Source of the DNA: a virus
Virus genome (UHGV): UHGV-0021788
DNA: 64,000 nucleotides
Direction: 5' to 3' (one strand)
Part shown: positions 6,099 to 64,000 of the stretch, piece by piece
Position numbering within the stretch: the first letter of the stretch is position 1
Layout of the letters: each line of letters begins with the position of its first letter
Notes under the pieces: model-generated
The model's database searches: none
What the model was told of the DNA's origin: nothing
What the model saw: only the letters and a program-made list of their open reading frames with translations
Position numbers and translations under genes: made by a program

Positions 6099-6100
6099 GT

Positions 6101-9100
6101 ATGGCGAATACAATAAATTCTACTAACAATCTCACATCCACAAAAATACCTGAATTATATATTAGATATTTCAATCCTAAACAAAAAGTTAATGAAACGA
6201 TAAGCATTAAATATTATGTATCTGATAGCACTCAAGCTGAGTATTTGAATAAAGATGATAGTAAAACTTTTACAACTATTGTTAAAATAAAAGATAAAAC
6301 ATATAATAAAACTACTAAAGCAGGAGAATATTCAATAGATATAGGTTCGATTGCTAATACTGGAGAAACTTATTTTAGTATTTATACTATAGATGATAAT
6401 GGAGTAGCAAGTATTGAACAATTTTTTGATATACTAATAGTTAATGATTCATACAATCAAGTGAATAATTATAATATGACAACTGCTGATTTATCTACAT
6501 ATAATATTACTGTTGGTGAAACTGCTAGCATAGCACAAGCTAAGACAAATAATACAGGATTGAATAACTTATTTAAAGCAGTTAAAAATAATGGTCATAA
6601 TAAGATTACTATGTTAAATAAAGTTTATATGTTAGATTATCATTCTGATAAAGTAGTTTTACCTGATAATTTCACAGTAGATATGAATGGAGCAACATTT
6701 AAAGCAACTCAATGTAATGATATTAACGTATCAAATTTAGTAGATTTAAAAGATTGTTTTGATTCTCATGTTAAAAATGGTAAATTAATTGGCAATTATG
6801 ATGGATTTGATTTCGAAGCAACAAAGACTAATACAAATTATAATATACCTGGTGAAGGATTAGCAGTTGCAGAAATTAATGGGGCAAGATATTCATCTTT
6901 TGAAGATATGGAAATGGGATATTCAGTTGGATACAATTTAGGTGTATTTGGTGGTAAACTAGCTGGATATGTAGGAACTCCTGGTCAATTAGCCTTCCCA
7001 AATGCATATTATATAAATGACCAAGGTAATACAGTTAGTAGTTCCACTATGAGTACAACAGAATTAATTGATATTTCAACATTATTAGATAGAGGTGAGA
7101 TACAATGTAATGTGTACTTAGGATATGGAGGATTAGCTTTAAACAAAGCAGAATTGTTTTTTCATTTTTATGATAGTCATTCTGCATATAAGACAACAAT
7201 AAAAACAAGACAGTATCAAGTAGTTAAAATACCAAGTGGTTCAAAATCTATGAGAATTACTGGTTTCACTTCAACTACAACATCATCAGGTATGACAATA
7301 TGTCATACAGGTGGTGCTACAAATTGTGAATTAATTAATATAAAATCACATAATACAAGAACATGTGCAATGCACCCTGGTATATACAATCATTTACTTA
7401 TAAAGAATTGTTCGTTTAACTATGTTGCTGACGAGAACGAATACAAAGTAACAAAATTAGCGTTAGATTTTGAAGATGGATATGAGAACGGTAAAAATTT
7501 ATTTTTCATAAATAATGAAGTTTATAATGGAACATCTGCTCTAACAATTCAAAGAGCTTTCAATAGTAATGTTATTAATTGTAGAAACTTTGGATTAGAC
7601 ATTAGAGGGCATATAAAAGGTGGTCTTTTTAAAAATAATTTCTTTAATGATGGAAGTATTTATACAACTAGTTTTGAATCTCAATCACACATTAAATTAC
7701 ACAATAATACATTTTTAAAAGTATTGAAATTTTTAAAATGGGATGATAAGGGAGATTATAGTACAATAGGTTTAACTAAGTTAGACTGTAAACAAAGTTA
7801 TCAAAATAATTCTAATATCAATGTAATAATTGATAAAGCAGTTGAAAGTAGTGGTAGTAGTGGAGGAGGAACTACTCCAACTGCATTAACTATAAGCAAT
7901 ATTTCAAATATTACACAAACTGCTAACACAGAATTTTATATTCAATATTCAACAAATAAAGCAGTAGTAAAACATGAAGTCTCATGGGACGGAGGAAATA
8001 TGTTCTATGATAAAACAAGCGATGTAACTTCTAGTGGAACAAGTTACAAGTTTAAACATGATAGCTCAGGTAATGCGGGAACTTATAGAATGGCTATAAG
8101 AGTTACTACTTCAAGTGGAGAAACCGTAACAAGTAATATATTTACTGTCACTTTAGAGAGTAAACCTGAAAGCGGTACTATAGGAAACATGACATATGGA
8201 AAAGGTATAGACTCAACTACTCACCTTATAAAAGACGATGCAGTGTGTTGGGCAACAGTTAATCCAGTAACAGTAGAACAAGGTGCTACTTACACATTAC
8301 AAATGGATGCTACATGGGTATGGGCATTTGCTTACGATGATAATGATAACTTTGTTAAAGATTTGTTTGATACATCAGGTGATAATAATGTTAAGTATAC
8401 ATTCACTGCACCTACAAATAAAATAAGATATAGATGTTATGACCCTAATAAGTATTTAACATATTGTAATTTAACTAAAATAAGTAGTGGAAGTACAGAT
8501 ACTTATTATACAATCAGATATTATTTACATGACTCTACTAGTTCTAACACAAGTACTTCTATCAAAAAGGGTTCTAGTTATTCTACAACTATCACTCCTA
8601 AAAATGGTTATAGAGTAAATTCGATATCTTGTATGATGGGTGGTAATGATGTAAGTAATTCGGTCGTTAGTGGTACTGCTGTTAATATACCTAATGTTAC
8701 AGGTGATGTTTCTGTTCTTGTAGATACTGAAGCGATTGGTGATACAAATACTTACTATACAGTTCATTATCATTTATCTGATTCTAGTAGTACTAATTTA
8801 ACTACATCTGTTAAAGAAGGTTTTAGTTATTCTACTACTATTATTCCTAATGATGGATATAGAATAAAAACAATATATTGTATAATGGGCGGTACTGATA
8901 TAAGTAGTTCAACAGTTAGTGATAATAAGGTTAAAATATCTAATGTTACTGGTGAAATTTATATTACTGTTATAACGGAAGCAATTTCTACACCAGAACC
9001 TGGCACTATAGGTAATATGACTTATGGAAAAGGTATAAATCAAAGTACTCATGTTATAACTGATAATACTGAATGTTGGGCAACAGTTAAGGCAATAACA

Positions 9101-11737: not shown

Positions 11738-11752
11738 GAGAGTGATAAAATA

Positions 11753-13591
11753 ATGAGTAGTTATATAAGTAATTCGTTTTCAGTATCGGTCAATAGACCG
11801 ACTACTGGAACAATTGAACCCGTATCAACCGTTAACATATACAAAAATGAAAAAATGTTACAAGCTGTAAGTGGTACACCAGGAGACGGAGAGTATAAAG
11901 TTACAATAACAAATACAACAAATTGTAGTGCTAGTATAAAATCTGATAATAAAACTATATTATTAAATTCTGTAACAGGAAATAATGGTACAATAGAAAT
12001 ATCAGTAAATATTGAAAATAAAAAAACATATAGTAAAACTATTTCTGTTGCTAATGTTAATGATACATCTGTTTTAAGTAGTAATTTTAGTAGAATTGAA
12101 CAAACTGCTAATAAAATAAGTTGGCTAGTAAAAAGTGGTACTAGTTCAAGTAATATGACATTAACAGATGAAGCACTGGATATTATTTCAAAAAATATTA
12201 ATATTACAGGTACAGTTACTTTTTCTAGTTTAGATAGTTATACTCAAAATAGAATAAATAGTTCATATAATTTGACTTCAGATTGGTCATATGGAGGAAC
12301 AACTACAATTAATGGTGCTAAAATACAAACAGGTACAATAACTGCTGACCAAATAAGTGCTAATGCAATTAAAGGTAAGAATATTACAGGTGGTACAATA
12401 AATATAGGTAGTGGTACATTTGTAGTTAATAAAAATGGTCAAATCATTGCAAGAACAGAACCTAACTCAAAAGGTCAATATTTGGAAATGAATAGTTCAA
12501 GTTATAAAATTTATAATGGTTCTAAAACTGTTGCTATGACTTTAGGATTTAGAGATGTTACATTTGAAAATGGTAATACTTCTACATCAACACCTTGTAT
12601 ATATTTAGGGGCAGATGGTATAAATAATCAAGGTGGTAGTAGTTATACTGCTGGAACAGGTAGATATTTTGGTAGAATAATGGCTACTGATAGTCATACT
12701 TCAATGTCAAATACTCACGTTGGTGTTCCTTTGATGGAAATAAATTTCAACAGTAGATATACAGATTCTGATACAGGAAATGCAATTGCAAGTCAAATGA
12801 GATTTTTTGGTGATGGTGATATGATAATAGCTCCAGTTTGTGACCTTCAAATAAGAACCCATCAAAAAGATAATATGGTATCAAAAGGTGGTTCAGAATA
12901 TGAAGTAGCTTACTTTGCTTCAAGTTCATCTGAATGGTATTCTGGATTTATGAGAACTTATGCTGTGACAAATAATTTCAATAGTAAAGGTTTGTTCTTA
13001 GGAGATTATTATATGAGTTCTTCTGGTAATGGTTATAATTCTAGTCTAGGTGATTTTGTTAGTGCAGTTCTTGTAAAAGCAGGTAAAACAAGTTCAGGAG
13101 ACAAAATGAGAACATTTAGACCTCATACTGACAATGTTGCTTTATTGGGTACTGGTGGTTATAGATGGGCAAAACTTTATTGTGGTAATAGTTCAATAAA
13201 TACTTCCGACAGAAGATGTAAAACAAATATAAATTATCTTACTTCTGATAATGCAAAAGTTGCAAGTAAACCATTATTTAATGAAGATGAAATATGGAAT
13301 TTTGTAAAAGATATTGATTTTGCAACATATAACTTTATAGATAATGAAACAGGAGGAGCAAAAGAAGATAATCAAATAGGATTTATTTTACAAGATTTAA
13401 TTCAAGCTTATCCTGATTTAACCAATTCTTTATTATTGGATAAAGGTAGTTATGATGTAGAAGAAGGCGAAGATGACACAATAGTTCCTATGTTAGGATA
13501 CAATAGTGGAAACTATGTTAATTTATTGGGTTGTGCTTTAAAACAAGCATTACAAAGAATAGAGAAATTAGAAGAACAAATAAATAAATAG
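11753..13591 (+). CDS. Tail fibre with a C-terminal intramolecular chaperone auto-proteolytic domain (peptidase S74-like).
   Basis: C-terminal 'NTSDRRCKTNINYL' matches the Ser-Lys dyad motif (S-D-x-R-x-K) of endosialidase/tail-spike CIMCD domains, followed by a coiled-coil end 'LQRIEKLEEQINK'. Confidence 0.55.
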   Translation: MSSYISNSFSVSVNRPTTGTIEPVSTVNIYKNEKMLQAVSGTPGDGEYKVTITNTTNCSASIKSDNKTILLNSVTGNNGTIEISVNIENKKTYSKTISVANVNDTSVLSSNFSRIEQTANKISWLVKSGTSSSNMTLTDEALDIISKNINITGTVTFSSLDSYTQNRINSSYNLTSDWSYGGTTTINGAKIQTGTITADQISANAIKGKNITGGTINIGSGTFVVNKNGQIIARTEPNSKGQYLEMNSSSYKIYNGSKTVAMTLGFRDVTFENGNTSTSTPCIYLGADGINNQGGSSYTAGTGRYFGRIMATDSHTSMSNTHVGVPLMEINFNSRYTDSDTGNAIASQMRFFGDGDMIIAPVCDLQIRTHQKDNMVSKGGSEYEVAYFASSSSEWYSGFMRTYAVTNNFNSKGLFLGDYYMSSSGNGYNSSLGDFVSAVLVKAGKTSSGDKMRTFRPHTDNVALLGTGGYRWAKLYCGNSSINTSDRRCKTNINYLTSDNAKVASKPLFNEDEIWNFVKDIDFATYNFIDNETGGAKEDNQIGFILQDLIQAYPDLTNSLLLDKGSYDVEEGEDDTIVPMLGYNSGNYVNLLGCALKQALQRIEKLEEQINK

Positions 13592-13642
13592 ATTAAAGTC
13601 TTATAAATATAATGTAAAATAAAAATAAAGGAGAGATATTAA

Positions 13643-13803
13643 TGGATATAAAACTTGAAATTGCTTTTCAACAAGCAATGGAGGAAATAGCAAATTTAAA
13701 TCAAAGAGTGATTCTTGAAAAAAGTTTAAGAATACAAGTAGAAGAAGAAAATAAAGAATTAAAAGAAAAAATAGAAAAATTAGAAAAAGATAATCCTCAA
13801 TAA
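13643..13803 (+). CDS. Small coiled-coil protein (53 aa), absent from the ORF track.
   Basis: RBS AAAGGAGAG 8 nt before the ATG. Translation MDIKLEIAFQQAMEEIANLNQRVILEKSLRIQVEEENKELKEKIEKLEKDNPQ. Confidence 0.35.
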
Positions 13804-13827
13804 ATATAAATAAAAGAAGGTGATAAA

Positions 13828-14304
13828 ATGGCTGACAATTTTATCAAAAGAGAAGTAGATATAGTAGTAAAGGGCAATACTGCTTCTCTTAATGAAAATA
13901 TATATCTATATCCTAGAGATAGATATATAGACATATATTTTACAATAAAAGATGTTGGATTTGCATTTGGTAATATCAATGGTAATTATGCTGAAAATGC
14001 AAGTTATGCTAGAGTAAAATATATAAGAAAAGATAAAACCACTCAAGGTGTTGTTTCACCTAGCATTTTAAATGTTGTTGATGGTAAGGTCAAATTATCT
14101 ATAAATGATGATTTTATGTGTAAAGAAGTAAATGGAGAACACGTTGAAATAACTCCAGGAGTATATTTATTACAAATACTTTTATATGATAATTCAGAAG
14201 GACATGGAAGAATAACAATACCACCTGTTGAATTTGAAATATTAGAACCTATTTTCCCAGATGATGAAAGCATAGAAACACTTTCTCTAAAGGTAGATGA
14301 ATAA
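13828..14304 (+). CDS. Structural (baseplate/fibre-associated) protein, short paralogue of the next gene.
   Basis: RBS AAGAAGGTGATAAAATG. N-terminus and the 'GRITIPPVEFEILEPIFPDDE' motif are paralogous to ORF 14307 ('GRITIPEIEFVVLDPIFFDPE'). Confidence 0.45.
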   Translation: MADNFIKREVDIVVKGNTASLNENIYLYPRDRYIDIYFTIKDVGFAFGNINGNYAENASYARVKYIRKDKTTQGVVSPSILNVVDGKVKLSINDDFMCKEVNGEHVEITPGVYLLQILLYDNSEGHGRITIPPVEFEILEPIFPDDESIETLSLKVDE

Positions 14305-39935: not shown

Positions 39936-40643
39936 TTAATCATTTATTTCTACTTCATAATCATACATAGCATCATATAACTTTTTAGATATGTATGGTT
40001 TATATTCATTAGCTATTTGTTTAATATATTTTTCTTTTTCTATTTTATATACATTAAATGCTTCTTCTACTGTAGAATAACATCCTAAATATCTTTTTCT
40101 ACTATCATTAAACTCACATTGTGATATATATTTTCCATTTTTATGTTTATATACGCCTATAGGATATTTTCCTCTTTTAATATCTGTCTTTGTAAATATT
40201 TTATTTATTCTTTGAGGTACAAAAACACAAGTTTTAGGAGAGTATATTTTATTTCCTTTTATTAATATATCTTTATCTAAACACATAGTTTCTTTTTCAA
40301 TCTCATAGTAATTTTCTTCAAACCATTTAGCAAAGTTTTGGAAATTATGCCATTCTTCACAAACATAACAATCTTCATACGTATTATATTTTTCTTTCCA
40401 TAATTTACTATATCCTCTTTCCAACATTCTCATCCATTCATGGTAACATTTTGTTTCCTTATTGTTTTCTCTAAATTTATATTTACCTTCACCTAAATAT
40501 CCAATATCTCTAAACCTTTTTTCATAAGGGCATATGATACTACCATTTTTAAAATGCTCATATCTACTATGTTTAAAAGTCCAATTATATTCCTCAAAAT
40601 AAACATCTATATCCTTAGCATTTCTATATTCAATTATTTTCAT
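39936..40643 (-). CDS. Free-standing HNH-type homing endonuclease with a C-terminal AP2-like DNA-binding domain.
   Basis: 'CLDKDILIKGNKIYSPKTCVFVPQRIN' (degenerate HNH). 'GVYKHKNGKYISQCEFNDSRKRYLGCYSTVEEA' (AP2). N-terminal module 'KIIEYRNAKDIDVYFEE' shared with the Zn-ribbon HEGs. Confidence 0.5.
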   Translation of the reverse strand: MKIIEYRNAKDIDVYFEEYNWTFKHSRYEHFKNGSIICPYEKRFRDIGYLGEGKYKFRENNKETKCYHEWMRMLERGYSKLWKEKYNTYEDCYVCEEWHNFQNFAKWFEENYYEIEKETMCLDKDILIKGNKIYSPKTCVFVPQRINKIFTKTDIKRGKYPIGVYKHKNGKYISQCEFNDSRKRYLGCYSTVEEAFNVYKIEKEKYIKQIANEYKPYISKKLYDAMYDYEVEIND

Positions 40644-47583: not shown

Positions 47584-50001
47584 CTATTCACATTTACTCC
47601 AAGAGCATGCACCACATTGAATGCATCCTCCCACGTAGGATAACTCTTCATAGCACACTGGACATCTACTGAATCTTTGAGCAAATGCAACTTCTCCATA
47701 CTCATTTATAAAATCTAATTCTTCTTTAGTAAATATTTCATGTTTACTTAATTTATATTCTTCTTTTTTTTCTTTAACTACTTCCATAGTTTCCTTTTTA
47801 TCATAATATCCTAATAATCGAAGCTCTTCTAAACAATCATTTTTTAAATCCTTTTCAACATCCAATAACATATGCAATATTGCAGAACCACAAGAATTTC
47901 CTTTTGATACTATTTGTCCTTTTGCTCTTGCTCTTGCAAATGAACTACAGTTACCCGCTCCTTCATAGCTCTTCTCTAAACTTTGAAGCGAACCTCCAGT
48001 TCTAATAAGGTTAGATATTGTTATAGCTATATTTTGTATGCTTAAAGAACATCCACCTTTAGCTGAATTCGTTACATATACATCAAATACTCTCTTTTCA
48101 CTAGGTATAATAGTTATATGTAATGTCATTTTTCCACATCCACTATATATTTTTCTAGGTATTTCTATACATCCTTGAGGTTTAACTTCCCATTCACCAC
48201 GTTTTAATTCATGAGGTTTTTCGTCCTCTTTAGTATTCTCATTAGTTAATAATATACCTTGTCTTACTTCATTAGGTCTAAATACAGTACATCCTTTTAT
48301 TCCTCTTTTCCAACATTCCATATAAACATCTTTCATTTCTTCAAAAGGGTATTCTGTTGGTATGTTAATGGTCTTACTACAACTCATATCTGTATGAAAG
48401 GCTATTGTAGATAATATATCTAAATGACTTTTAACACTCAATTCCATAGATGTTTTAAATACATCTTTATTTACTATATTATCTTCATTATTAAATTCTA
48501 ACCATTCTCCATAAGCATAATCTCTCATTTTATATATTCTTTCATGTTCTTCGTCTTGACCTCCAACTTTTATCTTCCTATCATATTCTAAAGAAAATAT
48601 AGGTTCAAGACCACTTGAGCAGTTATTTCCATATGATAAAGATAAAGTTCCGGTAGGAGCGATTGATACAAGTCTAGCGTTTCTAATACCATCTTTTAAT
48701 ATTTTTTCTTTTATATTATTCCATTTTGAATTTCTTTCAATATGTTTTTTTATAAAATTACTTTCTACAAATTTCTCTCTATCTAAAAAATTAAATGAAC
48801 CTTTTTCTTTAGCAAGATTACAACTTTCATCATAAGCAGTATATACTATAAAATCCATTAATTCATCGGTTAATTGAATTGATTCTTCATCACCATACTC
48901 TAAACCTAGCATAACAAATAAATCTGCCAATCCAGTTATTCCTAATCCTATTGTTCTTATATTTTTTTGATAATTAGCATAATTTTCTAATGGATAATTA
49001 TTAATATCTATTATATCATCCAATAATCTTACCCCTACTCTAATAGCTTTTTCAAGTTTATTCATATTGATTCCAGCTTCTTTAGTAAATGGATTTTCAA
49101 CAAAGTTATGCAAGAATAAACTACCTAAATTACAAGCCCCAAAATAATCGTATCTAGCTTTACCATCTAAAGTAATAACACCACTAAGATATTCACCGCA
49201 TGGATTTGTTGTTACTATTTTTTCCATATACTTTAAATTATTATCTTTATTCATATTGTCATAATATAATACTCCATATTCTCCAGTATTATATGCTTTT
49301 TCCATTATTAAATTCCATAACTCTCTCGCATTAACCTCTTTTTTTACATTCCATTCATCTTCGTTATATATAAAATCACCATTTTCCGTCATACAAGGGT
49401 ATCTTAAATATATGTTTCCGTCTTTTTCTACGGCTTCCATAAATTTATCATCGACTAAAAATGATAAATTAAAATGTGTTAACTTACCTTCATCCCAAGA
49501 TTTACTTTCTAAAAATTCATAAATATCAGGATGATATATACAAAGACAGCCCATGTTAGCACCTCTACGTGAACCTTGTAAAACTGTATGAGTTTGTGCA
49601 TCAAATGCATTCATAAAAGATACTACTCCACTAGCTATAGCTTCATTAGAAGTTGGAGTACCATTAGGTCTTAATAGTGAGAAATTATATCCTGTTCCTC
49701 CACCAGCTTTTTGAGTTATAGCACCATATTTTACAAAATTAAATATTCCTTCCATTGAATCAGGTACAAAATTTAAAGAAAAACAATTATTTAATGTTAA
49801 TGATTTTCCTATTCCACTATTACTCATTGTTCTACCAGCTGGATAAAATAATCCATCTATCATTACATCATAAAAATCTTGTTTTTCTTTATCTGTTGAA
49901 CCTATATAATCAGCTACTCTTCTTAACTGTTCTTCAAAAGTTTCATCATGTTTTCTATATCTATCATTCCATATTTCTTTAGAAATCAAATTATTTATCA
50001 T
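47584..50001 (-). CDS. nrdJ: Class II (adenosylcobalamin-dependent) ribonucleotide reductase NrdJ.
   Basis: N-terminal 'WNDRYRKHDETFEEQLRRVA'. 'TNPCGE' active-site motif. C-terminal CxxC...CxxC zinc ribbon 'CPVCYEE...CIQCGACSW'. Confidence 0.7.
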   Translation of the reverse strand: MINNLISKEIWNDRYRKHDETFEEQLRRVADYIGSTDKEKQDFYDVMIDGLFYPAGRTMSNSGIGKSLTLNNCFSLNFVPDSMEGIFNFVKYGAITQKAGGGTGYNFSLLRPNGTPTSNEAIASGVVSFMNAFDAQTHTVLQGSRRGANMGCLCIYHPDIYEFLESKSWDEGKLTHFNLSFLVDDKFMEAVEKDGNIYLRYPCMTENGDFIYNEDEWNVKKEVNARELWNLIMEKAYNTGEYGVLYYDNMNKDNNLKYMEKIVTTNPCGEYLSGVITLDGKARYDYFGACNLGSLFLHNFVENPFTKEAGINMNKLEKAIRVGVRLLDDIIDINNYPLENYANYQKNIRTIGLGITGLADLFVMLGLEYGDEESIQLTDELMDFIVYTAYDESCNLAKEKGSFNFLDREKFVESNFIKKHIERNSKWNNIKEKILKDGIRNARLVSIAPTGTLSLSYGNNCSSGLEPIFSLEYDRKIKVGGQDEEHERIYKMRDYAYGEWLEFNNEDNIVNKDVFKTSMELSVKSHLDILSTIAFHTDMSCSKTINIPTEYPFEEMKDVYMECWKRGIKGCTVFRPNEVRQGILLTNENTKEDEKPHELKRGEWEVKPQGCIEIPRKIYSGCGKMTLHITIIPSEKRVFDVYVTNSAKGGCSLSIQNIAITISNLIRTGGSLQSLEKSYEGAGNCSSFARARAKGQIVSKGNSCGSAILHMLLDVEKDLKNDCLEELRLLGYYDKKETMEVVKEKKEEYKLSKHEIFTKEELDFINEYGEVAFAQRFSRCPVCYEELSYVGGCIQCGACSWSKCE

Positions 50002-50078: not shown

Positions 50079-50225
50079 TTTTAACCCCTAACCTTAATAA
50101 AAATGAATCAATTAATATTTATAAAATTTCATGAATTGATATAATGTTAAAGTTTGTTGTTTTTCTAATGAAGCTAATATATTATTCATAATTCATCTCT
50201 CCTTTATTAAGATTATTTTAATTAT

Positions 50226-50254
50226 ATTATACTAATATTATTTATAAAAATCAA
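50226..50254 (-). promoter_or_regulatory. Early promoter TTGATT-N17-TATAAT upstream of a 25-aa leader ORF and nrdJ.
   Basis: + strand ATTATA 50226-31, AATCAA 50249-54. Confidence 0.5.
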
Positions 50255-50387
50255 TAAAACAAATGTATATTTTTAAAATCTTTTGATAATAATATTAGTA
50301 TCAAAGAGTTGTCAACGTGCTTTCATGATAAACCTATCGCCTTTTTACCAACTGACTAATTGTAAATTTGACAACTCTTTGATAGAA

Positions 50388-51389
50388 TTATTTTGCTGAA
50401 TTATCTGCATTATCTAAAGTCAATAGTCTAGCATAATTTAAATATCCAATTTTTCTAACCAATTTTTCAGATGAATATCCATTTTTTAATATCATATGGT
50501 TATTTATTAACCAAGCTATATCCATAATATCTCTATCACAAAGTTTAGTATATTTTATTAATACATCTATAACATCATAAGCTGACATATTCTCATGATT
50601 ATAATAATGGCAATGTCTACCTTCTTCGTCTTCTGTTTTTGCTATTGGTTTACTTATGTCATGCAACATAGAAGCTATTAATAAATTTTCATCAAGTTTA
50701 CTAACTTCTTTAATTTTCTTATAACAAAAATACATATGTTTACTTAAGGATAAATTGTGCCATTTACTATCTTGTGGCATTTCTATGCAATTGCTTAAGC
50801 TTAATTCAATTAATAAATTAATGTATTCTTTATAATCATCACATTTAATAAATCTTTCTTTATCCATACCTAAGCCAATTTTTCTTCTATTATCAATATA
50901 TAATTTTGTTTTATTATCATAATCTATAATAATTTCATCAAACCCTTCACATTTATGTGGTATTTCTATATTTTTATACATTCTTTCTACAACTTCATTA
51001 GGAACTTCTCTATCTCTTGCTTCATTATCTATAATACAATTTGTTAAATTCTTATATTTAAATAAACAAATTACTTTAGAATAATATTTTTTCATTTCTT
51101 TTAATAAGGCTCTTCTACGTTTGCTAGATATATTTGTAGCTTCATATATAGTCACATAACCTTTAGATAAACTCTTTTTTGTTCTTTTCCTCATCATTTC
51201 AAATACTTCTTTATTTTTGCTTTGGTCTTCTATGTCATTTAATAATTCTTTTCTAATTTCATCTGATGATATAACTTCTATATTTTTATCTTTATTTTCT
51301 TCTATATAATTTTTAACCCAAGATGTTTTTCCACTTCCAGGTATACCAACTGCAACAATTAGAATTCCTTGCAATTTTCTTCCACCCAC
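50388..51389 (-). CDS. Polynucleotide-kinase-like P-loop kinase fused to a C-terminal HD-domain phosphohydrolase.
   Basis: 'LIVAVGIPGSGKTSWV' (T4 Pnk-like Walker A). 'KHMYF...LLIASMLHDISKP' (H...HD). Translationally coupled to the RNA ligase gene. Confidence 0.6.
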   Translation of the reverse strand: MGGRKLQGILIVAVGIPGSGKTSWVKNYIEENKDKNIEVISSDEIRKELLNDIEDQSKNKEVFEMMRKRTKKSLSKGYVTIYEATNISSKRRRALLKEMKKYYSKVICLFKYKNLTNCIIDNEARDREVPNEVVERMYKNIEIPHKCEGFDEIIIDYDNKTKLYIDNRRKIGLGMDKERFIKCDDYKEYINLLIELSLSNCIEMPQDSKWHNLSLSKHMYFCYKKIKEVSKLDENLLIASMLHDISKPIAKTEDEEGRHCHYYNHENMSAYDVIDVLIKYTKLCDRDIMDIAWLINNHMILKNGYSSEKLVRKIGYLNYARLLTLDNADNSAK

Positions 51390-52594
51390 TTTCTTATTTC
51401 ATTATATTTTTTATATGCACCACTATGAGATTTAAGTATATTATATTTTCTTCCTAAATATTTCATTCTAACAAATTCTCTAATGTCACTATCTAAACAA
51501 TTAATATATTTATGTAATTCTTTATCGGTTTGAAGCTTACCTTTATTTCTTAATAATTCTATATTTATTCTATTTTTTGTTATTTTCATATTCATTCCAA
51601 CTATAAATTTTTCTATGGTATCTATTGTGTTTTTATTTGTTTCTTTTAGTGAGGACGACATATTAGCATATAAATCATCTATTGTGTCATCTGCATATGC
51701 TTTTATTATTGTGTTAGCAGAACTTAATTTATCATTTAGTCTATGTAATTGTAGATAGTCTTCACATTTAAGTTTTATTTTATGACCGTCTATATTTAAT
51801 ACAAACCCTTCTCCATCGTTTATTGTCATTTTATTTAAACGTTCCAAGACTTCTTCTAATGTATCACATTGATAAATCTTACAACAAGGAACATTAAATT
51901 TTATTGATGTTTTTTTAATGTATTTATAATCATATTCTTTACCATCTAAAACGCTTCTCATACCTATAAGATATAGACCTTTTTCTTTAGAATAGTCATA
52001 AGGAATAACATGCTTATCTTTTTCTGATATATATTCAAATACAAATGTTATCATTGGACAACTTTTTATCATCTGTTTATGATTATCTGTTAACATTTCA
52101 AATCCTTCTTTTAATCTAAATGAATTATTTATATCTAAAGATATACTTCCACTACCAACTATTTTTCCGTTATAATACCTATATGATTGCATACTACCAT
52201 CTAATTTTTCAGATACTTCAAACATATCGCAGTTGTTTATTTCTTCTTCTATAATATCTTTCATATTTTCTTTTACTTCATTCATATTAAAAAATTTTCT
52301 AAATGGTGTTAATACCATTTCTTCATTTTTTATATCAAAAACCAAACTTCTTGCTTCTCTTAGTGGAGAATTTTCATCTTCCCACATATTTCTTCCCATT
52401 TCATGTAATTTATATCTAATTAATACCAAGTCGTCTTTTTGATTAATTTGTACTTCATCAAATATTTCATTATATGGAATCCCTTCTTCTTTCATTGTAT
52501 CAATCATACCATTGAAAATTATATAATCTCCAAAATATTTAATATAATCATGTTTTAACTTAATACATTCATCAAACATTTTATTCCAACTCAT
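51359..52594 (-). CDS. RNA ligase, Rnl1 (T4 RnlA) family.
   Basis: Motif I 'EVSEKLDGSMQSYRYYNGKIVGSGS' (cf. T4 Rnl1 'TKEDGSLVSTYLDG..KSKGS'). Confidence 0.65.
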   Translation of the reverse strand: MSWNKMFDECIKLKHDYIKYFGDYIIFNGMIDTMKEEGIPYNEIFDEVQINQKDDLVLIRYKLHEMGRNMWEDENSPLREARSLVFDIKNEEMVLTPFRKFFNMNEVKENMKDIIEEEINNCDMFEVSEKLDGSMQSYRYYNGKIVGSGSISLDINNSFRLKEGFEMLTDNHKQMIKSCPMITFVFEYISEKDKHVIPYDYSKEKGLYLIGMRSVLDGKEYDYKYIKKTSIKFNVPCCKIYQCDTLEEVLERLNKMTINDGEGFVLNIDGHKIKLKCEDYLQLHRLNDKLSSANTIIKAYADDTIDDLYANMSSSLKETNKNTIDTIEKFIVGMNMKITKNRINIELLRNKGKLQTDKELHKYINCLDSDIREFVRMKYLGRKYNILKSHSGAYKKYNEIRKWVEENCKEF

Positions 52595-52638
52595 ATCATC
52601 ATCTCCTTAAAAATAATAGTTTGTGTATCTTTACTTAT

Positions 52639-52667
52639 ATTATACACAAACTATTATCAAAAGTCAA
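52639..52667 (-). promoter_or_regulatory. Early promoter TTGACT-N17-TATAAT upstream of the rnl-pnk operon.
   Basis: + strand ATTATA 52639-44, AGTCAA 52662-67, then RBS AAGGAGATGATGATATG. Confidence 0.6.
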
Positions 52668-52683
52668 TTATTTTTTATTATTT

Positions 52684-53622
52684 TTATTCAGTATCTTCAT
52701 CATATTTACTTAATACTTCACCTAATGTTTTAGATAATTCATCTTTATCTTCTTCTTCATCCTCAGTATCTTCTTCTTCATCTTCTTTGTGGCAATCACA
52801 ATTTCCGTCACATTCACAATTTCCACCACATTTACATTCTTTCTTATCTTCCATTTCTTCATCTCCCTCCTCATCTTCATCTTCATCATTTAATCCTAAA
52901 ATTTCAGATAAACCTGTATGTAATAAAGTTATCGCCAATTCTCCTTCTTCCATATCCATTAATTGAGCAAAGGTTTGAACTGCTAAAGCAGTTGCTTGAT
53001 TAAATCTTTCATCTAATTCATCCCAATCAGGTTCACAACCTTCATATCCATAATTTACTATTCCTAACTCTATTGCTTCCTCATAGCCATAGTATATACA
53101 TTTTAATCTACTTGCTTCAATTTGTTCTTCAGGTATATTTGTTTGTTCTCTTATCATTTTATCATATAAATCATCCATATAATCACTATGGTCTAAATCA
53201 CTTCTAACTTCTTCTCTATATCCCATATAATGAGAACGACTACTATGATTCATGCCAGCAAATAATTTATCTGCTGTCCTTTTATTAAATGCTATATATA
53301 TTATGAACGCCATAGACATACAAGTTATTCCATTTGCTATTAAAGGTATTTCTAATTCTTGCATCTCTTTTATTCTTGATATAATTAAGTTACCATCATA
53401 TATATTTCCTCCAGGAGAGTTTATAGTAACTGTTATCGTAGGAAATTTTTGTTGCATAATTTCTTTTATATAAGAAGTTTCAGTTTTATATGATGTAAAT
53501 TCATCTATTATATCTTGTGTTTCTTCAATAAACTTATTAGATACATTATCATCAATTATTCCAGTTATAAATAATTCAGTTCTTAATTTATTTTTTTTAT
53601 CTACCATATTTTTATTCTTCAC
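52684..53622 (-). CDS. ClpP-family serine protease with an acidic, Cys-rich C-terminal extension.
   Basis: 'TINSPGGNIYDG', 'ANGITCMSMAFIIYIAFNKR', 'AGMNHS' (ClpP Ser/His regions). Tail 'ECKCGGNCECDGNCDCH' flanked by poly-E/D. Confidence 0.5.
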   Translation of the reverse strand: MKNKNMVDKKNKLRTELFITGIIDDNVSNKFIEETQDIIDEFTSYKTETSYIKEIMQQKFPTITVTINSPGGNIYDGNLIISRIKEMQELEIPLIANGITCMSMAFIIYIAFNKRTADKLFAGMNHSSRSHYMGYREEVRSDLDHSDYMDDLYDKMIREQTNIPEEQIEASRLKCIYYGYEEAIELGIVNYGYEGCEPDWDELDERFNQATALAVQTFAQLMDMEEGELAITLLHTGLSEILGLNDEDEDEEGDEEMEDKKECKCGGNCECDGNCDCHKEDEEEDTEDEEEDKDELSKTLGEVLSKYDEDTE

Positions 53623-53635
53623 TTTGTTATCAAAG

Positions 53636-54364
53636 TTACTCTCCTTGTTTTATTCTATATACTTTATTATGATTCCATACTAAAAACTTCCATTTTAACT
53701 TAACTCCATTAGGTAGTTTTCCAGCAGTTTTAATATTTATTTTTTTACCATTTGCCATACGATAACCATAACAACATCTAGTTATTCCAGATTGATGACA
53801 ATTATAATATTGAGAAGCTTCTGATAATGATGTAAAAATTCTTTTTGTTGTTAAACATATAACGCTTTTAGCTTCTGGATGATTACCAAATGAAACATCA
53901 GCATGATTTTTACTCATTTTTATTCTGGACTCTTCACTCATTTTAACTCCAAACATATGATTATCTTCTCCACAATATTTACCTTTTTTATTTTTACTCA
54001 TTTTTTTCTTACTTTCTTCTTTATGATGATATCCACTTACTCCTTCTCCTCCCCAACTACAATTAACTAAATGATAATTTTTACCATCACAACTTCCATT
54101 ATTAATTATATCAATAGAATAACCTTCATTAAACACTAGATTATATATTGTTTCTTCTTCCAATTGAAACGCTTCTTTTTCTGTTAGGTTATCATATAAT
54201 ATTTCAACAACACATTCTGTTTTATTTAATATATTTGTAAAATGATTGCTTCTATCTTGTAAAACAAATCGTCTTCTGTCTTTTCCTTTGCCTATATAAA
54301 AATAAGTATTTGTATCTAATCTTATATATCCATATACATAGTATTTATTATTCATTTTTATCAC
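53636..54364 (-). CDS. Free-standing GIY-YIG homing endonuclease with NUMOD3-like repeats. The likely real start is ATG 54355.
   Basis: 'KYYVYGYIRLDTNTYFYIGKGKDRRRF'. 'GYHHKEESKKKMSKNKKGKYCGEDNHMFGVKMSEESRIKMSKNH'. Confidence 0.7.
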   Translation of the reverse strand: MIKMNNKYYVYGYIRLDTNTYFYIGKGKDRRRFVLQDRSNHFTNILNKTECVVEILYDNLTEKEAFQLEEETIYNLVFNEGYSIDIINNGSCDGKNYHLVNCSWGGEGVSGYHHKEESKKKMSKNKKGKYCGEDNHMFGVKMSEESRIKMSKNHADVSFGNHPEAKSVICLTTKRIFTSLSEASQYYNCHQSGITRCCYGYRMANGKKINIKTAGKLPNGVKLKWKFLVWNHNKVYRIKQGE

Positions 54365-55195: not shown

Positions 55196-55874
55196 CTACT
55201 TTTATTCTTTTTTTATTATCTAAAATTAAACATCCTTTATCTGTTATTGCATAATTTAAAGTTTGCTTAAAAGAGCAATCTAAAAATCTATTAAATTCTC
55301 TAAATAATTCTTCATGATTTTCTTCATTGTAATGGACGAATAAGTTAACTATATCTATTAACCCTATTCCTTCATATTTCATTGGTATTGCATTTGTCAT
55401 TACTACATAATATTCTAATAAGCATAATGCCCCAGCTGACTCCCCTATTAAAATTTTGTTATCCAATTGTTTTATTGTATCTAATAATTTATATTTCTTT
55501 AACATCATCATTAGCATATCCATAGAACCACCAGTAAAATATATTACATCTGACGTATTTATTAGCCATTTAATAAGGTTTAAATTGTCCAAAGGAGTAA
55601 TTACATTAAAATCTTTAATCCCATACTCTCTAAAGTGTTTATTATGTTTATTATAGAATTTACCATTATATTGTAAATCAGTTTGATTTTTAAATAAATA
55701 TTCTAAATCACAAGCAAATGGAATACATACTACTCTTGAATTAGGTTTTATATATTCCTTAACTTTATTATAACATTGTTTATCTTCTAAGTAATCAGCA
55801 TTAGATAATAATATATATTTATTCATATCAACCACCACCCTTTTAATATATTTGTCTGAAGAATTGTAAATCAT
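55179..55874 (-). CDS. Peptidase S51 (dipeptidase E / class I glutamine-amidotransferase-like) family protein.
   Basis: 'IYFTGGSMDMLM...LIGESAGALCL' matches the S51 nucleophile region. Confidence 0.4.
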   Translation of the reverse strand: MIYNSSDKYIKRVVVDMNKYILLSNADYLEDKQCYNKVKEYIKPNSRVVCIPFACDLEYLFKNQTDLQYNGKFYNKHNKHFREYGIKDFNVITPLDNLNLIKWLINTSDVIYFTGGSMDMLMMMLKKYKLLDTIKQLDNKILIGESAGALCLLEYYVVMTNAIPMKYEGIGLIDIVNLFVHYNEENHEELFREFNRFLDCSFKQTLNYAITDKGCLILDNKKRIKVGEIYG

Positions 55875-57294
55875 TATTTTTTATTTTATAAATTTTATTA
55901 TGTCTCCAATTTATATATTTCCATATTAATTTAGTTCCATCTTCTAATTTTCCAGCTGATTTACTTCTGCCTTTACAACAAGATGTTACACCACTTGGAC
56001 TTTTAATATTATAGAAATTACAAGCATCAGTTATTGTATAAAATAATTTACCAGTGGTAATACATATAACTCCTCTTGAACAATAATTATCTTTTCCTTT
56101 TTTCTTTAAATTTCCAATTCTTTTACTTTCTTCTTTTGTATAATCGCATTTATTACATTTCACTCCTTGTTTCAAATAGCTTCTAACCGTAGACCTATTT
56201 AAATCAAGTATATTACTTATTTTATTAATATCATGTTCTCCATTGTTCCATAATTCCCATGTTTTAACACACAAACTATTCTGAGTTTTTTTCCATGCTA
56301 ATTCCCAATTAATATCAGACAAATTAAATAAATTTGATAATTTCTTAGTTACATTTTCTTTTAACCATTCTAAAGTTGAATATCTACAATCTATTACTAT
56401 ATAATTATCTACATGAACTTTAGCACATTTATATTTAAATAAATCATTCATTTGTTCTTGGAATAAATTTCTTTTAGTTAAACTGCATTCTTCATAATGT
56501 TGTATCCCATTTATTTCTATTATCATATTATATTTTTTAATATAAAAATCATATTTGAAATATCCACACCATTTAAAATCTGATTTATTTAATTGTGTTT
56601 GAAAATCTACGTTAAGTTGTTTTAATATGTTTATCATAAATTTTTCAGGAATTGAAATGCCATCTGAACAAAAATTACAAGAATATCCTCTATTAACAAT
56701 AAATTGTAAAACTATTTTATTTTCACTTACTAAATTACAATCCAAACACTTAAAATAATATTTTTTATGACTAAAAGGTGCTATACTATAGCAATCTTCA
56801 AAGGTTAAATCATTTTCTTTTATAGCAATCATTCTGGCTATTTGAGGATATTTATATGCTAAACTATCTCTCCAATGAGTTCTATTAGTACTGCAATACC
56901 CACATTTACTTCCATTATAAAAATTATTACACTTCATTTTATATCCTATTTTATTTCCTTCTCTATCATAATTATGATAATCGTGTTCTTGACAATATAA
57001 CCATATAATAGTTCTGCTACTTTTAGATGTTTCATAGGGATTAATGCCTAATTCATTATTTTTCTCCCAATTCCAAATATCATCTAAATTTAATCCTAGT
57101 TTATTTTCTATATAGTAACCAATACTATTTTTTAACGGGTGTTTAATATCTCCGTTTTTAAAATTTTTATAATGCTTTTTATAAGCTATAGTACCATCTT
57201 CAAATTGTATATCTATATCTTCATATTTTCTATAATTTATTACAGTCATTTTTTCGCCTTGTTTATTGTATTTTATTTCTCCTTCTCTATTCAT
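55843..57294 (-). CDS. Free-standing homing endonuclease (Zn-ribbon + Vsr-like/DUF559 + HTH + C-terminal Cys cluster), overlapping the start of the S51 gene. The likely real start is ATG 57249.
   Basis: 'YFKYDFYIKKYNMIIEINGIQHYEE'. 'ISNILDLNRSTVRSYLK'. N-terminus 'MTVINYRKYEDIDIQFEDG' shared with 43108 and 39936. Confidence 0.55.
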   Translation of the reverse strand: MNREGEIKYNKQGEKMTVINYRKYEDIDIQFEDGTIAYKKHYKNFKNGDIKHPLKNSIGYYIENKLGLNLDDIWNWEKNNELGINPYETSKSSRTIIWLYCQEHDYHNYDREGNKIGYKMKCNNFYNGSKCGYCSTNRTHWRDSLAYKYPQIARMIAIKENDLTFEDCYSIAPFSHKKYYFKCLDCNLVSENKIVLQFIVNRGYSCNFCSDGISIPEKFMINILKQLNVDFQTQLNKSDFKWCGYFKYDFYIKKYNMIIEINGIQHYEECSLTKRNLFQEQMNDLFKYKCAKVHVDNYIVIDCRYSTLEWLKENVTKKLSNLFNLSDINWELAWKKTQNSLCVKTWELWNNGEHDINKISNILDLNRSTVRSYLKQGVKCNKCDYTKEESKRIGNLKKKGKDNYCSRGVICITTGKLFYTITDACNFYNIKSPSGVTSCCKGRSKSAGKLEDGTKLIWKYINWRHNKIYKIKNNDLQFFRQIY

Positions 57295-60557: not shown

Positions 60558-62145
60558 TTATTTATTTGCTTTTCTATATTCATATTCTTCTTTATTTAAT
60601 TCTTCTACTTCTTCTTCATTAAGTAAATGATATTCATCACACCATATTTCAAACTCTCCATTTTGTACCCATTTTGTTTTAGTTATTGTATTTCCATCTT
60701 TGTCTATTGTTTCAACTTCTTTTTTTTCTTTTTTTGCCTTTTGAAACATATGGTATACATTGATTACACTAAATGCTTTAAATGGTTGTGCTTCATAAAT
60801 TCCTTCACCAACTTTTATTTCTATGTTTTTTCCAGTACTTATATTAAAAATCCATGCTTTTTTATTCTTAAATTTGGTTATAACATCAATAACGATACAA
60901 GTTGATGAATCATAATCTTCAAAATAATAATTACATTCTCCAGTCATTTCAAGATTAATTTTAACCTTATCTATTGATGGCATTTCGTTATCTTCTATAT
61001 TCAACATTAATTCATTACATAATTCTAATGCTTTTTCTACTTTATATTGTTTATATTTATCTTCTTTACTTTTTTCAGTTGCATATTTTTCTATTATTTC
61101 TTTAGGATATGGTAGGTCAGCTTTATTAAATGATACTTCACCTTTCTTAGATTTTAATTTTTTACTCATTATTTTTTCATATAAATCTATAATATCTAAT
61201 AATTTTTGTGATTTACCAAATTCATCGAAGAAATCTATTGCTATTAATATATTAAGTTGTCTTGAGTTTATAGATGTTTTATCATTTAAATCAATAAGTA
61301 AATCCATAAAACTATTATATTTATTATCTTTTAACATATATAATTCTTGTGATACTTGTTCATTCATATATTTTATACTAGCCATACCTTTATATATAGA
61401 ATTACTTTCTTTATCCATAAAATATTCAGCTTTAGAATATCTAAATTTAGGTGGTAATAATTTTATATCAAAATAACTTAATTCTTTTATTAGTCTATTT
61501 GTTCTAGTTGAATCATCGGAATAAATAGATAGGGCAACTGTATAATATTCAAGAGGATAATGTGATTTTAAAAATGCTCCATACAGACTATCATAGGCAT
61601 AAGAAAGTGAATGTGAAGCATTGAATGAATATTTTGAAGCATCATTAACTACTTGCCATGTTTCTTCAAATCCATCAATTGAACCAACTTTATCTATCCA
61701 ACCTTTTTTTAATTTTTTTTCTAACTCTATTAATTCTTTTTCTTTAAATTTTTTCTTTGATATTTTTTTAATAATTCCATATGTTTCAGGCTCAGGAATA
61801 CCTAACCATATTAAATATTTCATAATAGATTCTTGATACATCAAATAATGATAACTATCTTCTAACAAATTATCCAATTCTTTTACACCTGTTGTATATG
61901 GTTTTCTTTCTATAAAATTATCTAATAAAGAAGCAAATCCTGGTCTAATTGAAGCAACAAACGCACTCATTTCAGCTACACTAGAAACTTTATATCTTGA
62001 TGCTAAATTAGTTGCAAAATCTGAATCAGATTGATTTATTGTACAAGTTATTTTATCTTCATATATTTTAAATGTTTTTTCATCTAACATTTTTTCTAAT
62101 TCTTTAATAGTCGGTATTTTAATATTAGCTAATTCACAAGTTTTT
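60558..62145 (-). CDS. dnaE: 3' exon of the split dnaE-type DNA polymerase III alpha gene. The ORF track starts at internal ATG 62090.
   Basis: 'SKYSFNASHSLSYAYDSLYGAFLKSHYPLEYYTVAL' (DnaE 'SFNKSHA..YA..Y.TAYLK.HYP' motif). Frame open upstream of the ATG to ~62150, no RBS. Confidence 0.55.
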
Positions 62146-62515
62146 CTTATTAATGTCCAAACTGTAACCGCAAGATACGTTAATACCGTTCCTTTCGGAA
62201 TACTTTAACACCCATTTAAGGGTCGGACTAGACTATACCTTTATCTTCGACATTACTCGTTAAGATATGCCTATTATAGTCGTTGAAGGTTTCCCATTTT
62301 AAAGGGATTTCCCTGCTGATTATCCATTCATTCGCCCTTAGCGCCTTTTACAAGGCTTTTATTTCAGCTTAGGTAATCCTTATAATTTTTTCTGCTTTCG
62401 CAACCATCAAGCTTAATGTCACCATTTACTTTGTGGTTTATAAGGCTTTAGGAACTCCCAGCAATTTAAGGCATCATAATCTACATAATTTCTTATATAG
62501 ACGACTATTAAATTA
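62146..62515 (-). mobile_element. ORF-less group I intron in dnaE, same family as the phosphoesterase-gene introns. Splice sites approximate.
   Basis: On the - strand: P 'AAATTGCTGGGAG' (rc of 62456-68), Q 'AATCAGCAGG' (rc of ~62312-21), R 'CCTTCAACGACTAT' (rc of 62277-90), S 'GGTATAGTCTAGTCC' (rc of 62226-40), 3' end '..TTTGGACATTAATAAG'. Confidence 0.6.
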
Positions 62516-64000
62516 ATCATTCTTTAGATATTTATAAACATCACAATTATAACCATCTAAATTACAACATATTCCTTCTTTAGTTTTTATTAAACCAATT
62601 TCTTCTGAAACATTTTTATCATATAATAACATTGAACAAGGTGATTCTGATATACTTTCTACTACTCCTTTAAATACTTTTGAATCTTTTATTATTTTTC
62701 CCCAATATTCATCATTTTCATATTGTTCTAAATTTTTAGCTATTTCATCATATTTACTAACATGCATATCATTTGCCTTACACCATAGTCTAAAAGCAGA
62801 TGAATCTTGTAAAGGTTTATATGATAAAATCCAAGCACAATTTTCTTCGCCTAATAAATCTTTAGTTGCTTGTATAAATACTGAACGGTCTTCTGTATTT
62901 AAATCTACATCAGGCAATGAACGTGTACCTAATATACGTTCTATACTCATAAATCTAGTTGGATACAATGGAACTGGTGCAGACAATCTATCTATTTCTG
63001 TTAAACCTAATAATTTATTTATAATAAAACTTACAGCTGAATTATGAACTATCATATTATTAAGTAAATAACTATGCTCATTTTCAACTTCTATATCATA
63101 TACTGTGGTTTTTTGTTTAGGTAATATAATGATTTCCTTAATAGGAAGATAATAGTAATTATTATCCTCGAAAGTTCTTTCATTTTTTTTCTGTGAATAA
63201 TTAGAATTTTTATTTAATCTTAATTTATAAGATTCTTTACATAAATACCCTTCTTTCATTTTATGTTCTTTTCTTACGCTTAAACTATTTACTCCTTCAT
63301 CCGTCATTAAACATAATAATTTATATGCGTTTATTAAAGATTTTGAAGTATTATCGAAATTGATTCTATATTCACAAAAGCTTCCATCTGATAATCTTAA
63401 TCCTTTTACTATACCTAATAAATTTTCTTTTGATTGATTAAACCATTTTTCATTAAATATTTTATCTTTTCCTTTTTTAGATTCAAATAATTCCTGTTTA
63501 ACAAAATTACAAAATACTGTAGAATTAATATATAGTTGACTTAATTTTTTAGTTTTACTTACATTTTCATATATAGATTTATTTAATTTAGATGCTATAT
63601 TATAAAATATTTCTCTATTATATTTATCTTTTTCAGTAGTATTGTTTATGGCTAATCCAACACTGGTTTTTTTAGAAGTAAATCCGTCGCCATACATTAA
63701 TCCTATAAATATATTAAATTCTTTATCTATTTCAATATATCTTTCTAATTTTGAAAATTGTTTAGATTTAACATATTTAGAATATTCTTCTTGGGTATTA
63801 AAAGGTATATAATCCATTAAAGCTTTATATTTATCTTTTTTCCTATTAAAACAATTTTTTTTCATATTTGCAAAATTTTCTACTAATGACTTACCAACAC
63901 CTATTTTTCTTGCAACATCACTAGGAGAATATTTATAAATAGTATTAGTTTTTTCATATATATATTTATCATCAAAATCAAATCCGTTGATATTATAATC
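62516..64000 (-). CDS. dnaE: 5' exon segment of dnaE, 5'-partial at the window edge. Contains the C-terminal part of an intein and the downstream extein.
   Basis: Extein 'SAVSFIINKLLGLTEIDRLSAPVPLYPTRFMSIERILGTRSLPDVDLNTEDR' (pol III alpha core). Frame open to nt 64000. Confidence 0.55.
63041..64000 (-). mobile_element. Intein with a LAGLIDADG homing-endonuclease domain inside dnaE. The N-terminal splice junction lies beyond the window.
   Basis: LAGLIDADG-like 'IFIGLMYGDGF' and 'LGIVKGLRLSDGSF'. Intein C-terminus 'YDIEVENEHSYLLNNMIVHN|S' (His-Asn + Ser+1 at 63038-63043). Confidence 0.6.

Follow-up and report, generated by a model that had tools for sequence, protein, structure and literature searches.

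A phage gene pair with a probable role in RNA end healing and sealing: an Rnl1-type ligase and a kinase-HD enzyme in UHGV-0021788

Phage T4 encodes a tRNA repair pathway, composed of Pnkp and Rnl1, that acts against PrrC (PMC3400036). A different design, a polynucleotide kinase-phosphatase (PNKP) subfamily uniting a 5'-kinase with an HD-type 3'-phosphohydrolase, was proposed years ago, as PMC1997131 records; the same paper cites a 2005 study in which the 3'-phosphatase activity of the phage RM378 PNKP resides in the HD domain, and describes Deinococcus DRB0098, an HD-kinase studied as a DNA-repair PNKP and encoded in an operon with the ligase-like DRB0100. In the HD-Pnk of Runella slithyformis (Munir and Shuman 2017), as summarised in PMC6097658, an HD 2',3'-phosphoesterase at the N-terminus precedes a 5'-OH kinase at the C-terminus, and the gene is overlapped by a ligase open reading frame (ORF) immediately upstream. 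HD-like phosphatases also occur in RNA repair systems of some jumbo phages (PMC7824862), and the kinase and ligase of the phages Thrax and Tsamsa have already been read as a T4-like anti-PrrC tRNA repair pair (PMC9703825). Here we describe such a pair in the virus genome UHGV-0021788, of which a stretch of 64,000 nucleotides (nt; hereafter the window) with about 26% GC and a strand switch near 36.5 kb was analysed. Two minus-strand genes, one for an Rnl1-type RNA ligase and one for a kinase-HD protein, would form an operon for RNA end healing and sealing whose likely substrates are tRNA or further RNAs that host nucleases have cleaved, a reading to which we assign a probability of about 0.7.

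Both ORFs delimited by a first-pass annotation, which had been made from the letters of the sequence, were recovered: 51359..52594, with 411 amino acids (aa), and 50388..51389, with 333 aa when read as the longest ORF. The locus has the following parts.

52639..52667, minus strand: predicted promoter of the sigma-70 type, TTGACT-17 nt-TATAAT, matching 11 of 12 consensus positions
52603..52608, minus strand: ribosome-binding site (RBS) AAGGAG, 8 nt 5' of the ligase ATG, from sequence inspection and kept in relatives
51359..52594, minus strand: ligase gene, Rnl1-family ATP-dependent RNA ligase, 411 aa
51379..51386, minus strand: stretch ahead of the kinase-HD start codon TTG 51374, from sequence inspection
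50388..51374, minus strand: Pnk-HD end-healing gene, 328 aa from TTG 51374, with the longest ORF starting at GTG 51389
50901..51374, minus strand: polynucleotide 5'-OH kinase domain, about residues 1-158
50391..50807, minus strand: HD phosphoesterase domain, about residues 190-328

We propose a model where a single promoter would drive the ligase gene and the overlapping kinase-HD gene, the two probably being translationally coupled. The N-terminal P-loop kinase would phosphorylate 5'-OH polynucleotide ends, and the C-terminal HD domain, probably with a pair of metal ions bound, would act by hydrolysis to turn ends bearing a 2',3'-cyclic phosphate, a 3'-phosphate or a 2'-phosphate into 3'-OH ends. 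These the ligase, adenylylated at K130, would then join to the 5'-phosphate ends. The substrates would be host tRNAs, or RNAs of other kinds, that metal-independent defence ribonucleases have cleaved, much as T4 Pnkp and Rnl1 act against PrrC, and repair of such RNA is the most likely role of the pair. The analysis establishes the identity of the domains, full sets of active-site residues, the structure of the operon and a strong conservation of the pair among phages, from which the enzyme activities, RNA (tRNA) as the substrate and a part in counter-defence are inferred.

The ligase passes the Pfam cut-off for RNA_lig_T4_1 (PF09511, E=7e-19, 69 bits against 28.3) but falls short of that for the NCBIfam equivalog TIGR02308, which represents T4 RnlA (53.9 against 242), and is therefore a member of the family and not a T4 RnlA equivalog. 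It also matches phrog_562 (E=9e-36), covering profile positions 23-350 of 377. A single-sequence search of the PDB with the ligase returned noise (Rab proteins, E about 0.8). A profile built from 19 homologues, 91-41% identical, matches T4 Rnl1 (2c5u) with E=8e-16 over residues 53-322. With regard to the all-helical C-terminal domain of the Rnl1 type, this alignment extends to T4 residue 322 of 374 and the phrog_562 match to profile position 350 of 377. The residues that we take to be essential in T4 Rnl1 are R54, K75, F77, K99, D101, G102, E159, E227, G228, K240 and K242. Motif I of the window ligase, K130-L-D132-G133, pairs with K99-E-D101-G102, the likeness to T4 Rnl1 that the first-pass annotation had noticed, and K130, D132 and G133 are invariant in the 19 homologues. 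The same annotation had made much depend on whether the motif I lysine is accompanied by motifs III to V; these are also in place and invariant, with E187, E262-G263 and K274/K276 opposite T4 E159, E227-G228 and K240/K242. Further upstream, R82, K100 and F102 pair with the Rnl1-specific N-terminal residues R54, K75 and F77 and are likewise invariant.

This conservation bears on another possible use of the protein. The PHROG label for the ligase, 'RNA ligase and tail fiber protein attachment catalyst' in the category tail, would fit a ligase kept for a structural, non-catalytic role of the kind that T4 gp63 (Rnl1) has in tail-fibre attachment. Such a role is extremely improbable here, as the label derives from T4, none of the catalytic residues for nucleotidyl transfer varies even among homologues diverged to about 42% identity, and the gene has a healing-enzyme gene as its coupled partner and is placed in a replication block, not a structural block.

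The kinase half of the partner protein has an intact P-loop (G10-x-P-G-S-G15-K16-T17), in agreement with the Pnk-like kinase that had been called at first pass. It matches Pfam AAA_33 (E=5e-17, residues 10-143) and KTI12, as well as phrog_505 (polynucleotide kinase) and the kinase part of TIGR04075 (bacterial Pnkp). When the PDB was searched with the single sequence, O-phosphoseryl-tRNA kinase (PSTK) came first (E=6e-11) with Clostridium thermocellum Pnk just behind, and the family profile placed C. thermocellum Pnk (4gp7, 6e-27) ahead of PSTK (3e-22) and T4 Pnk (5e-15). An AlphaFold2 model of the 328-aa protein reached a mean predicted local distance difference test score (pLDDT) of 96.1 and a predicted template-modelling (TM) score of 0.93. 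Foldseek placed C. thermocellum Pnk 4gp6 at the top for the full-length model, with a target TM-score of 0.79 and a root-mean-square deviation of 2.3 Å, and gave T4 Pnk 1ly1 a score of 0.75.

In the Michaelis complex of C. thermocellum Pnk, D38 is the general base with R41 as its partner, S37 and T80 contact phosphodiesters, Q51, F58 and V129 stack on bases, K21 and S22 belong to the P-loop, and R120 and R123 to the lid (PMC3902929). The window protein has K16, T17, S36-S37-D38-x-x-R41, R120 and R122 aligned with K21, S22, D38, R41, R120 and R123, and from about residue 36 to 81 the alignment is ungapped, such that the two numberings coincide. Every residue that binds the NTP or the 5'-OH strand in C. 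thermocellum Pnk has a counterpart, 80-100% conserved among 145 diverse homologues of the kinase-HD family. Those that hold the acceptor strand (S37, Q51, F58, T80 and position 129) are 85-98% conserved in the same set, position 129 being Ile in most homologues and Val in the window protein. We therefore read this half as a polynucleotide kinase and not as a small-molecule kinase.

The opposite assignment would deny the protein a role in healing polynucleotide ends: the HD domain would break down nucleotides or small signalling molecules (2',3'-cyclic nucleotides or other immune messengers, for example), and the substrate of the kinase would be a nucleotide or be linked to tRNA, in the manner of PSTK or KTI12. 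The leading single-sequence match to PSTK and the Pfam match to KTI12 could be taken that way, and HD domains are functionally very diverse. We nevertheless judge it very improbable, given the preference of the family profile for C. thermocellum Pnk over PSTK, the retention, position for position, of the residues that hold a 5'-OH oligonucleotide (S37, D38, R41, Q51, F58, T80 and V129), and the close genomic link with an RNA ligase.

The remainder of the protein carries an HD domain in the place where T4 Pnkp has its HAD 3'-phosphatase, as the first-pass annotation had proposed. Its match to Pfam PF01966 lies above the cut-off (24.4 bits against 22, residues 232-309), and H206, H213, H238-D239, K242, H260, H293 and D324 are 99-100% conserved in the 145 homologues. 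The metal-ligand set (H206, H213, H238-D239, H260, H293 and D324) is complete in the window protein, which disposes of the early worry that the domain might lack metal-ligating His and Asp residues. The pattern H..HD..H..H..D is typical of two-metal-ion HD enzymes. With the HD ligands and ligase motifs I, III, IV and V conserved, the functional reading of the pair survives. The family profile matches the HD-bearing region of a bacterial class-II tRNA nucleotidyltransferase (3wfp/3wfo/3wfr) with E=1e-15, and Cas3-HD with 5e-5. Because kinase matches dominated the Foldseek list of the full-length protein, a separate HD-only model was made (pLDDT 95); its best fold match was again 3wfp/3wfr (query TM-score 0.62-0.63), and PhnZ oxygenases and alarmone hydrolases also appeared among the matches. 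The HD domain of the E. coli CCA enzyme was reportedly found by Yakunin and colleagues in 2004 to be a 2',3'-cyclic phosphodiesterase, 2'-nucleotidase and phosphatase.

The same arrangement is common among phages. An exhaustive search of 1.84 billion cluster representatives (50% identity clusters) recovered 188 kinase-HD clusters at E<=1e-30, and within the top 150 all 147 two-domain members have the kinase before the HD domain, the other three being fragments. Full-length homologues are present in 37 GenBank phage records, mostly of Tsamsa-like Bacillus siphophages, under labels as varied as polynucleotide kinase, AAA ATPase, HD-domain protein and hypothetical protein, and an RnlA-type ligase gene adjoins or lies near the kinase-HD gene in every GenBank record that was cross-checked. 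A DNA-level search of a phage collection gave no matches. For IMG/VR, we took the best 80 of 424 viral ligase hits and scanned their loci with kinase, HD and ligase profiles. A downstream kinase-HD gene on the same strand accompanies this ligase subfamily (33-98% identity) at 58 of its 64 loci in that sample, and half of the six loci without the partner are truncated contigs. The 16 more distant Rnl1 ligases have no kinase-HD gene within 4 kb. Linkage at this level argues for a conserved module and not a chance neighbourhood, so that the kinase-first, HD-last healing enzyme and its Rnl1 ligase represent a large, widespread phage module.

The two genes abut or overlap in 27 of the 58 pairs and are spaced in the other 31, usually by one ORF of about 270 aa (L020, L021, L022, L032-L046 and others; in L034 at 5301-6101). 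This spacer ORF, which the window lacks, has a GS...DxD motif like that of nucleotidyltransferases. Its assignment to RlaP, the Pfam RNA repair pathway Pol-beta family, was considered and dropped, the match in L020 being weak and below the cut-off (E=0.006).

Pairing on this scale also bears on whether the kinase-HD protein might serve mainly in the healing of DNA, or of nucleic-acid ends in general, during phage replication and repair, readying 5'-OH/3'-phosphate nicks for a DNA ligase and having Rnl1 as an accessory passenger in some genomes. The setting of the operon in a block for DNA replication and nucleotide metabolism is compatible with this idea, as are close relatives that keep kinase-HD without the ligase, the ATP-dependent DNA ligase encoded three genes downstream in Tsamsa, and published accounts of Runella HD-Pnk as a DNA/RNA end-healing enzyme and of DRB0098 in DNA repair. 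It seems unlikely to us all the same, since kinase-HD is paired with an Rnl1-type ligase at 58 of 64 viral loci, the nearest structural relative of its HD domain is a tRNA-processing enzyme, and a search of the window revealed no counterpart of the Tsamsa DNA ligase. RNA healing and sealing by the pair remains our preferred reading.

Comparison with the described systems shows how much of this design was already known. The first-pass annotation had suspected that a kinase-HD enzyme paired with Rnl1 was undescribed, a view that does not hold: the HD-type PNKP of RM378, Runella HD-Pnk and DRB0098 all precede it, and Tsamsa-like phages carry the pair in the same order. In these Bacillus phages an RnlA-type ligase gene stands immediately upstream of one for a protein of about 320 aa that begins with the kinase and ends with the HD domain, which is the architecture of the window. 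Tsamsa gp174 (the ligase) overlaps gp175 by 4 nt, Thrax has gp101 and gp100, and the pair is also found in Izhevsk, PBC2, pW2, FADO and PK-3. Identity to the window proteins is 31-35% over 97-100% of the length for kinase-HD and 22-28% for the ligase. The Tsamsa-like phages infect Bacillus and the phage behind the window is uncultivated; PMC9703825 makes no mention of an HD domain. The window pair is thus a divergent member of a phage module that has already been sequenced and annotated.

Runella HD-Pnk, compared through its published description, resembles the window system in joining an HD domain to a P-loop kinase in one healing enzyme and in having an overlapping ligase gene upstream. It differs in that its HD domain is N-terminal, its host is a bacterium and its cluster also holds Tpt1 and an MTase-HIT gene; its partner, in the same account, is not an Rnl1 but another type of ATP-dependent ligase-like protein, which has so far proved inactive. 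In RM378, Rm378p110 likewise combines a Pnk kinase (profile E=2e-17) with an HD domain (6e-18), and the genome also encodes an RNA ligase annotated as Rnl1, Rm378p103. Unlike the window protein, however, Rm378p110 has the HD domain (16-160) ahead of the kinase (188-336), and the two RM378 genes lie about 6.5 kb apart on opposite strands, with no operon, in a phage of a thermophilic host. Rm378p110 (L100 48060-49145) is entered in RefSeq as 'probable poly A polymerase' and is an HD-kinase PNKP by our profiles; the label probably reflects the likeness of its HD domain to CCA/poly(A) polymerase enzymes.

The T4 enzymes share with the window pair the same three chemical steps, the order of kinase before phosphatase and homologous kinase and ligase folds. 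The T4 3'-phosphatase is an acyl-phosphatase of the DxDxT (HAD) type, whereas the window has an HD domain, and the T4 genes are not known to be adjacent. The same two domains also occur in phrog_6931, listed with 'unknown function', to which the window HD domain aligns at positions 35-151 (4e-13) and the kinase at 187-339 (3e-23). That family is the HD-then-kinase phage form, of which the window protein is the domain-swapped counterpart. The kinase-first order makes the window protein a sister architecture of HD-Pnk and not a strict member of it. In the literature searched, we found no paper naming or characterising the order with the kinase first and the HD domain last. The chemistry of the module is already demonstrated in the domain-swapped HD-Pnk enzymes. 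What is gained is that two genes of an uncultivated phage, about 200 kb in size, can be assigned functions with confidence; the accepted picture of RNA repair stays as it was.

The closest relatives of the locus, found with a close-clade kinase-HD alignment, are metagenome contigs around 200 kb long, together with a contig from the bin 'MAG: Bacilli bacterium', which carries a homologue of 61% identity. The window phage (uncultivated, about 200 kb, 26% GC) possibly has a Bacilli host. Relatives share a gene order of S51 peptidase, YpsA and ClpP, then ligase and kinase-HD, then ribonucleotide reductase (RNR), Gmk and RuvC. The pair is kept in L011 (ligase 98% identical), in L006/L007 (91%) and, in a more distant clade, in L004/L005/L008 (66%), and its genes are adjacent or overlapping in all of these metagenome relatives.

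Several observations weigh against a pathway in which the two proteins heal and then seal RNA. Foremost among them, at least six independent contigs (L012-L017, with L002/L003 duplicating L017) keep kinase-HD, 85-89% identical to that of the window and behind the same promoter, leader and RBS, and have no ligase. The ligase slot is empty in L013-L017 and in L002/L003, where kinase-HD follows the leader directly with an ATG start, and in L012 it holds an unrelated small ORF; these contigs are also absent from the best 80 of the 424 viral ligase hits. The ligase is thus a facultative cassette and the healing enzyme the constant part, which is not strictly dependent on this ligase: this is the chief caveat to healing and sealing by the pair. 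Specificity for RNA is put in question by the activity of characterised HD-Pnk enzymes on DNA ends as well, according to PMC6097658 and PMC1997131. The window itself has no tRNA genes by ARAGORN and no other RNA-repair genes. There are also departures at single residues. The window clade has E78 in the kinase where 96% of the kinase-HD family has D78, and S241 in the HD domain where 95% has Gly. Work by Wang and colleagues in 2003 is said to have found T4 Rnl1-specific essential residues in R54, K75 and F77 upstream of motif I, plus K119; in the ligase family K119 aligns with S150 or S148 and has no lysine counterpart.

It is tempting to take the ligase-less relatives one step further. The kinase-then-HD enzyme, and not the ligase, could be the conserved, selected core, with a ligase-independent role in counter-defence, either erasing 2',3'-cyclic-phosphate ends or signals or passing healed ends to a host ligase, and maybe in concert with an unusually conserved structured element at 50291-50392, which starts at its stop codon. 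Conservation of the enzyme behind an unchanged promoter would suit this proposal, which we consider doubtful and decidedly less probable than healing and sealing by the pair. In any case, related phages that naturally have or lack the ligase behind an invariant promoter lend themselves to comparison on the question of what the healing enzyme does by itself.

The same relatives inform the expression signals of the operon. The shared promoter named at first pass stands up well: at 11 of 12 consensus positions it has the top promoter-like score of the scanned stretch, tied with one other site, and it is unchanged at 52667..52639 in seven related contigs, whether these bear the ligase or not. The overlap of 31 nt that had been reported between the two genes is correct for the longest ORFs and probably not for the genes as translated. 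In ligase-less relatives the promoter and RBS are followed by ATG-AAA-GGA-ATT (MKGILIV...), the counterpart of TTG-CAA-GGA-ATT (MQGILIV...) at 51374 in the window, and most of the listed kinase-HD homologues, the closest included, are gene-called at 328 aa. On these two grounds we place the kinase-HD start at TTG 51374, so that the overlap is most likely 16 nt, as judged from the sequence. The stretch GGTGGAAG is located 4 nt 5' of this TTG, and the kinase-HD ATG of L012 is preceded by the similar GGTGGTGGAAG. Translational coupling of the two genes is plausible.

Just beyond the operon lies one further element.

50291..50392, minus strand: hairpin with a 17-bp stem and a 52-nt loop, beginning at the kinase-HD stop codon (inverted repeat I2)

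Its predicted RNA fold has a z-score of -4.3, and the element is 94% conserved in 7-9 relatives, above the flanking coding sequence. A single pair varies in a compensatory way, being AU in 7 sequences and GC in 2, and the loop is nearly invariant except for a 5-nt indel. Rfam gave no credible family, either at the gathering threshold for the whole window or at E<=10 for the hairpin region. A tRNA-like nature of the loop, which contains AGTTGGT, was considered and found no support from Rfam or ARAGORN. The hairpin may be the 3' boundary of the operon or a regulatory element, and its membership of the module is uncertain. A promoter-like site at 50315..50286 has its TTGACA within the 3' arm of the hairpin. 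The interval from the hairpin to the RNR gene holds a 25-codon ORF at 50110-50187 on the minus strand (MNNILASLEKQQTLTLYQFMKFYKY) with a strong AAGGAG RBS and a promoter-like site of its own at 50254..50226, and its start region is conserved in relatives.

The operon sits within the minus-strand block for replication and nucleotide metabolism. Genes of this block encode pieces of PolIII-alpha, a beta-CASP protein, an S51 peptidase, a YpsA/SLOG protein and homing endonucleases, together with a ClpP-like protease, RNR, guanylate kinase, RuvC, thymidylate synthase and dUTPase; an endolysin gene is found at the strand switch. The ClpP-like protease immediately upstream of the operon (52684-53622, minus strand) has an acidic, Cys-rich tail (KECKCGGNCECDGNCDCH...) resembling a metal-binding motif. 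The PolIII-alpha-like polymerase is apparently split into 60558-62090 and 62513-63865 on the minus strand, about 420 nt apart, for which a split gene, an intron or a frameshift may be the cause; Rfam at its gathering threshold identified no intron. Genes resembling homing endonucleases are located at 53636-54364, 55843-57294 and 39936-40643. The RNR gene of the window (47584-50001) is free of an intein, whereas in L002/L003 (compared at 10672-13872 and 9376-10476) the RNR contains an intein with a LAGLIDADG domain, and a TnpB (OrfB_IS605) gene lies between kinase-HD and RNR.

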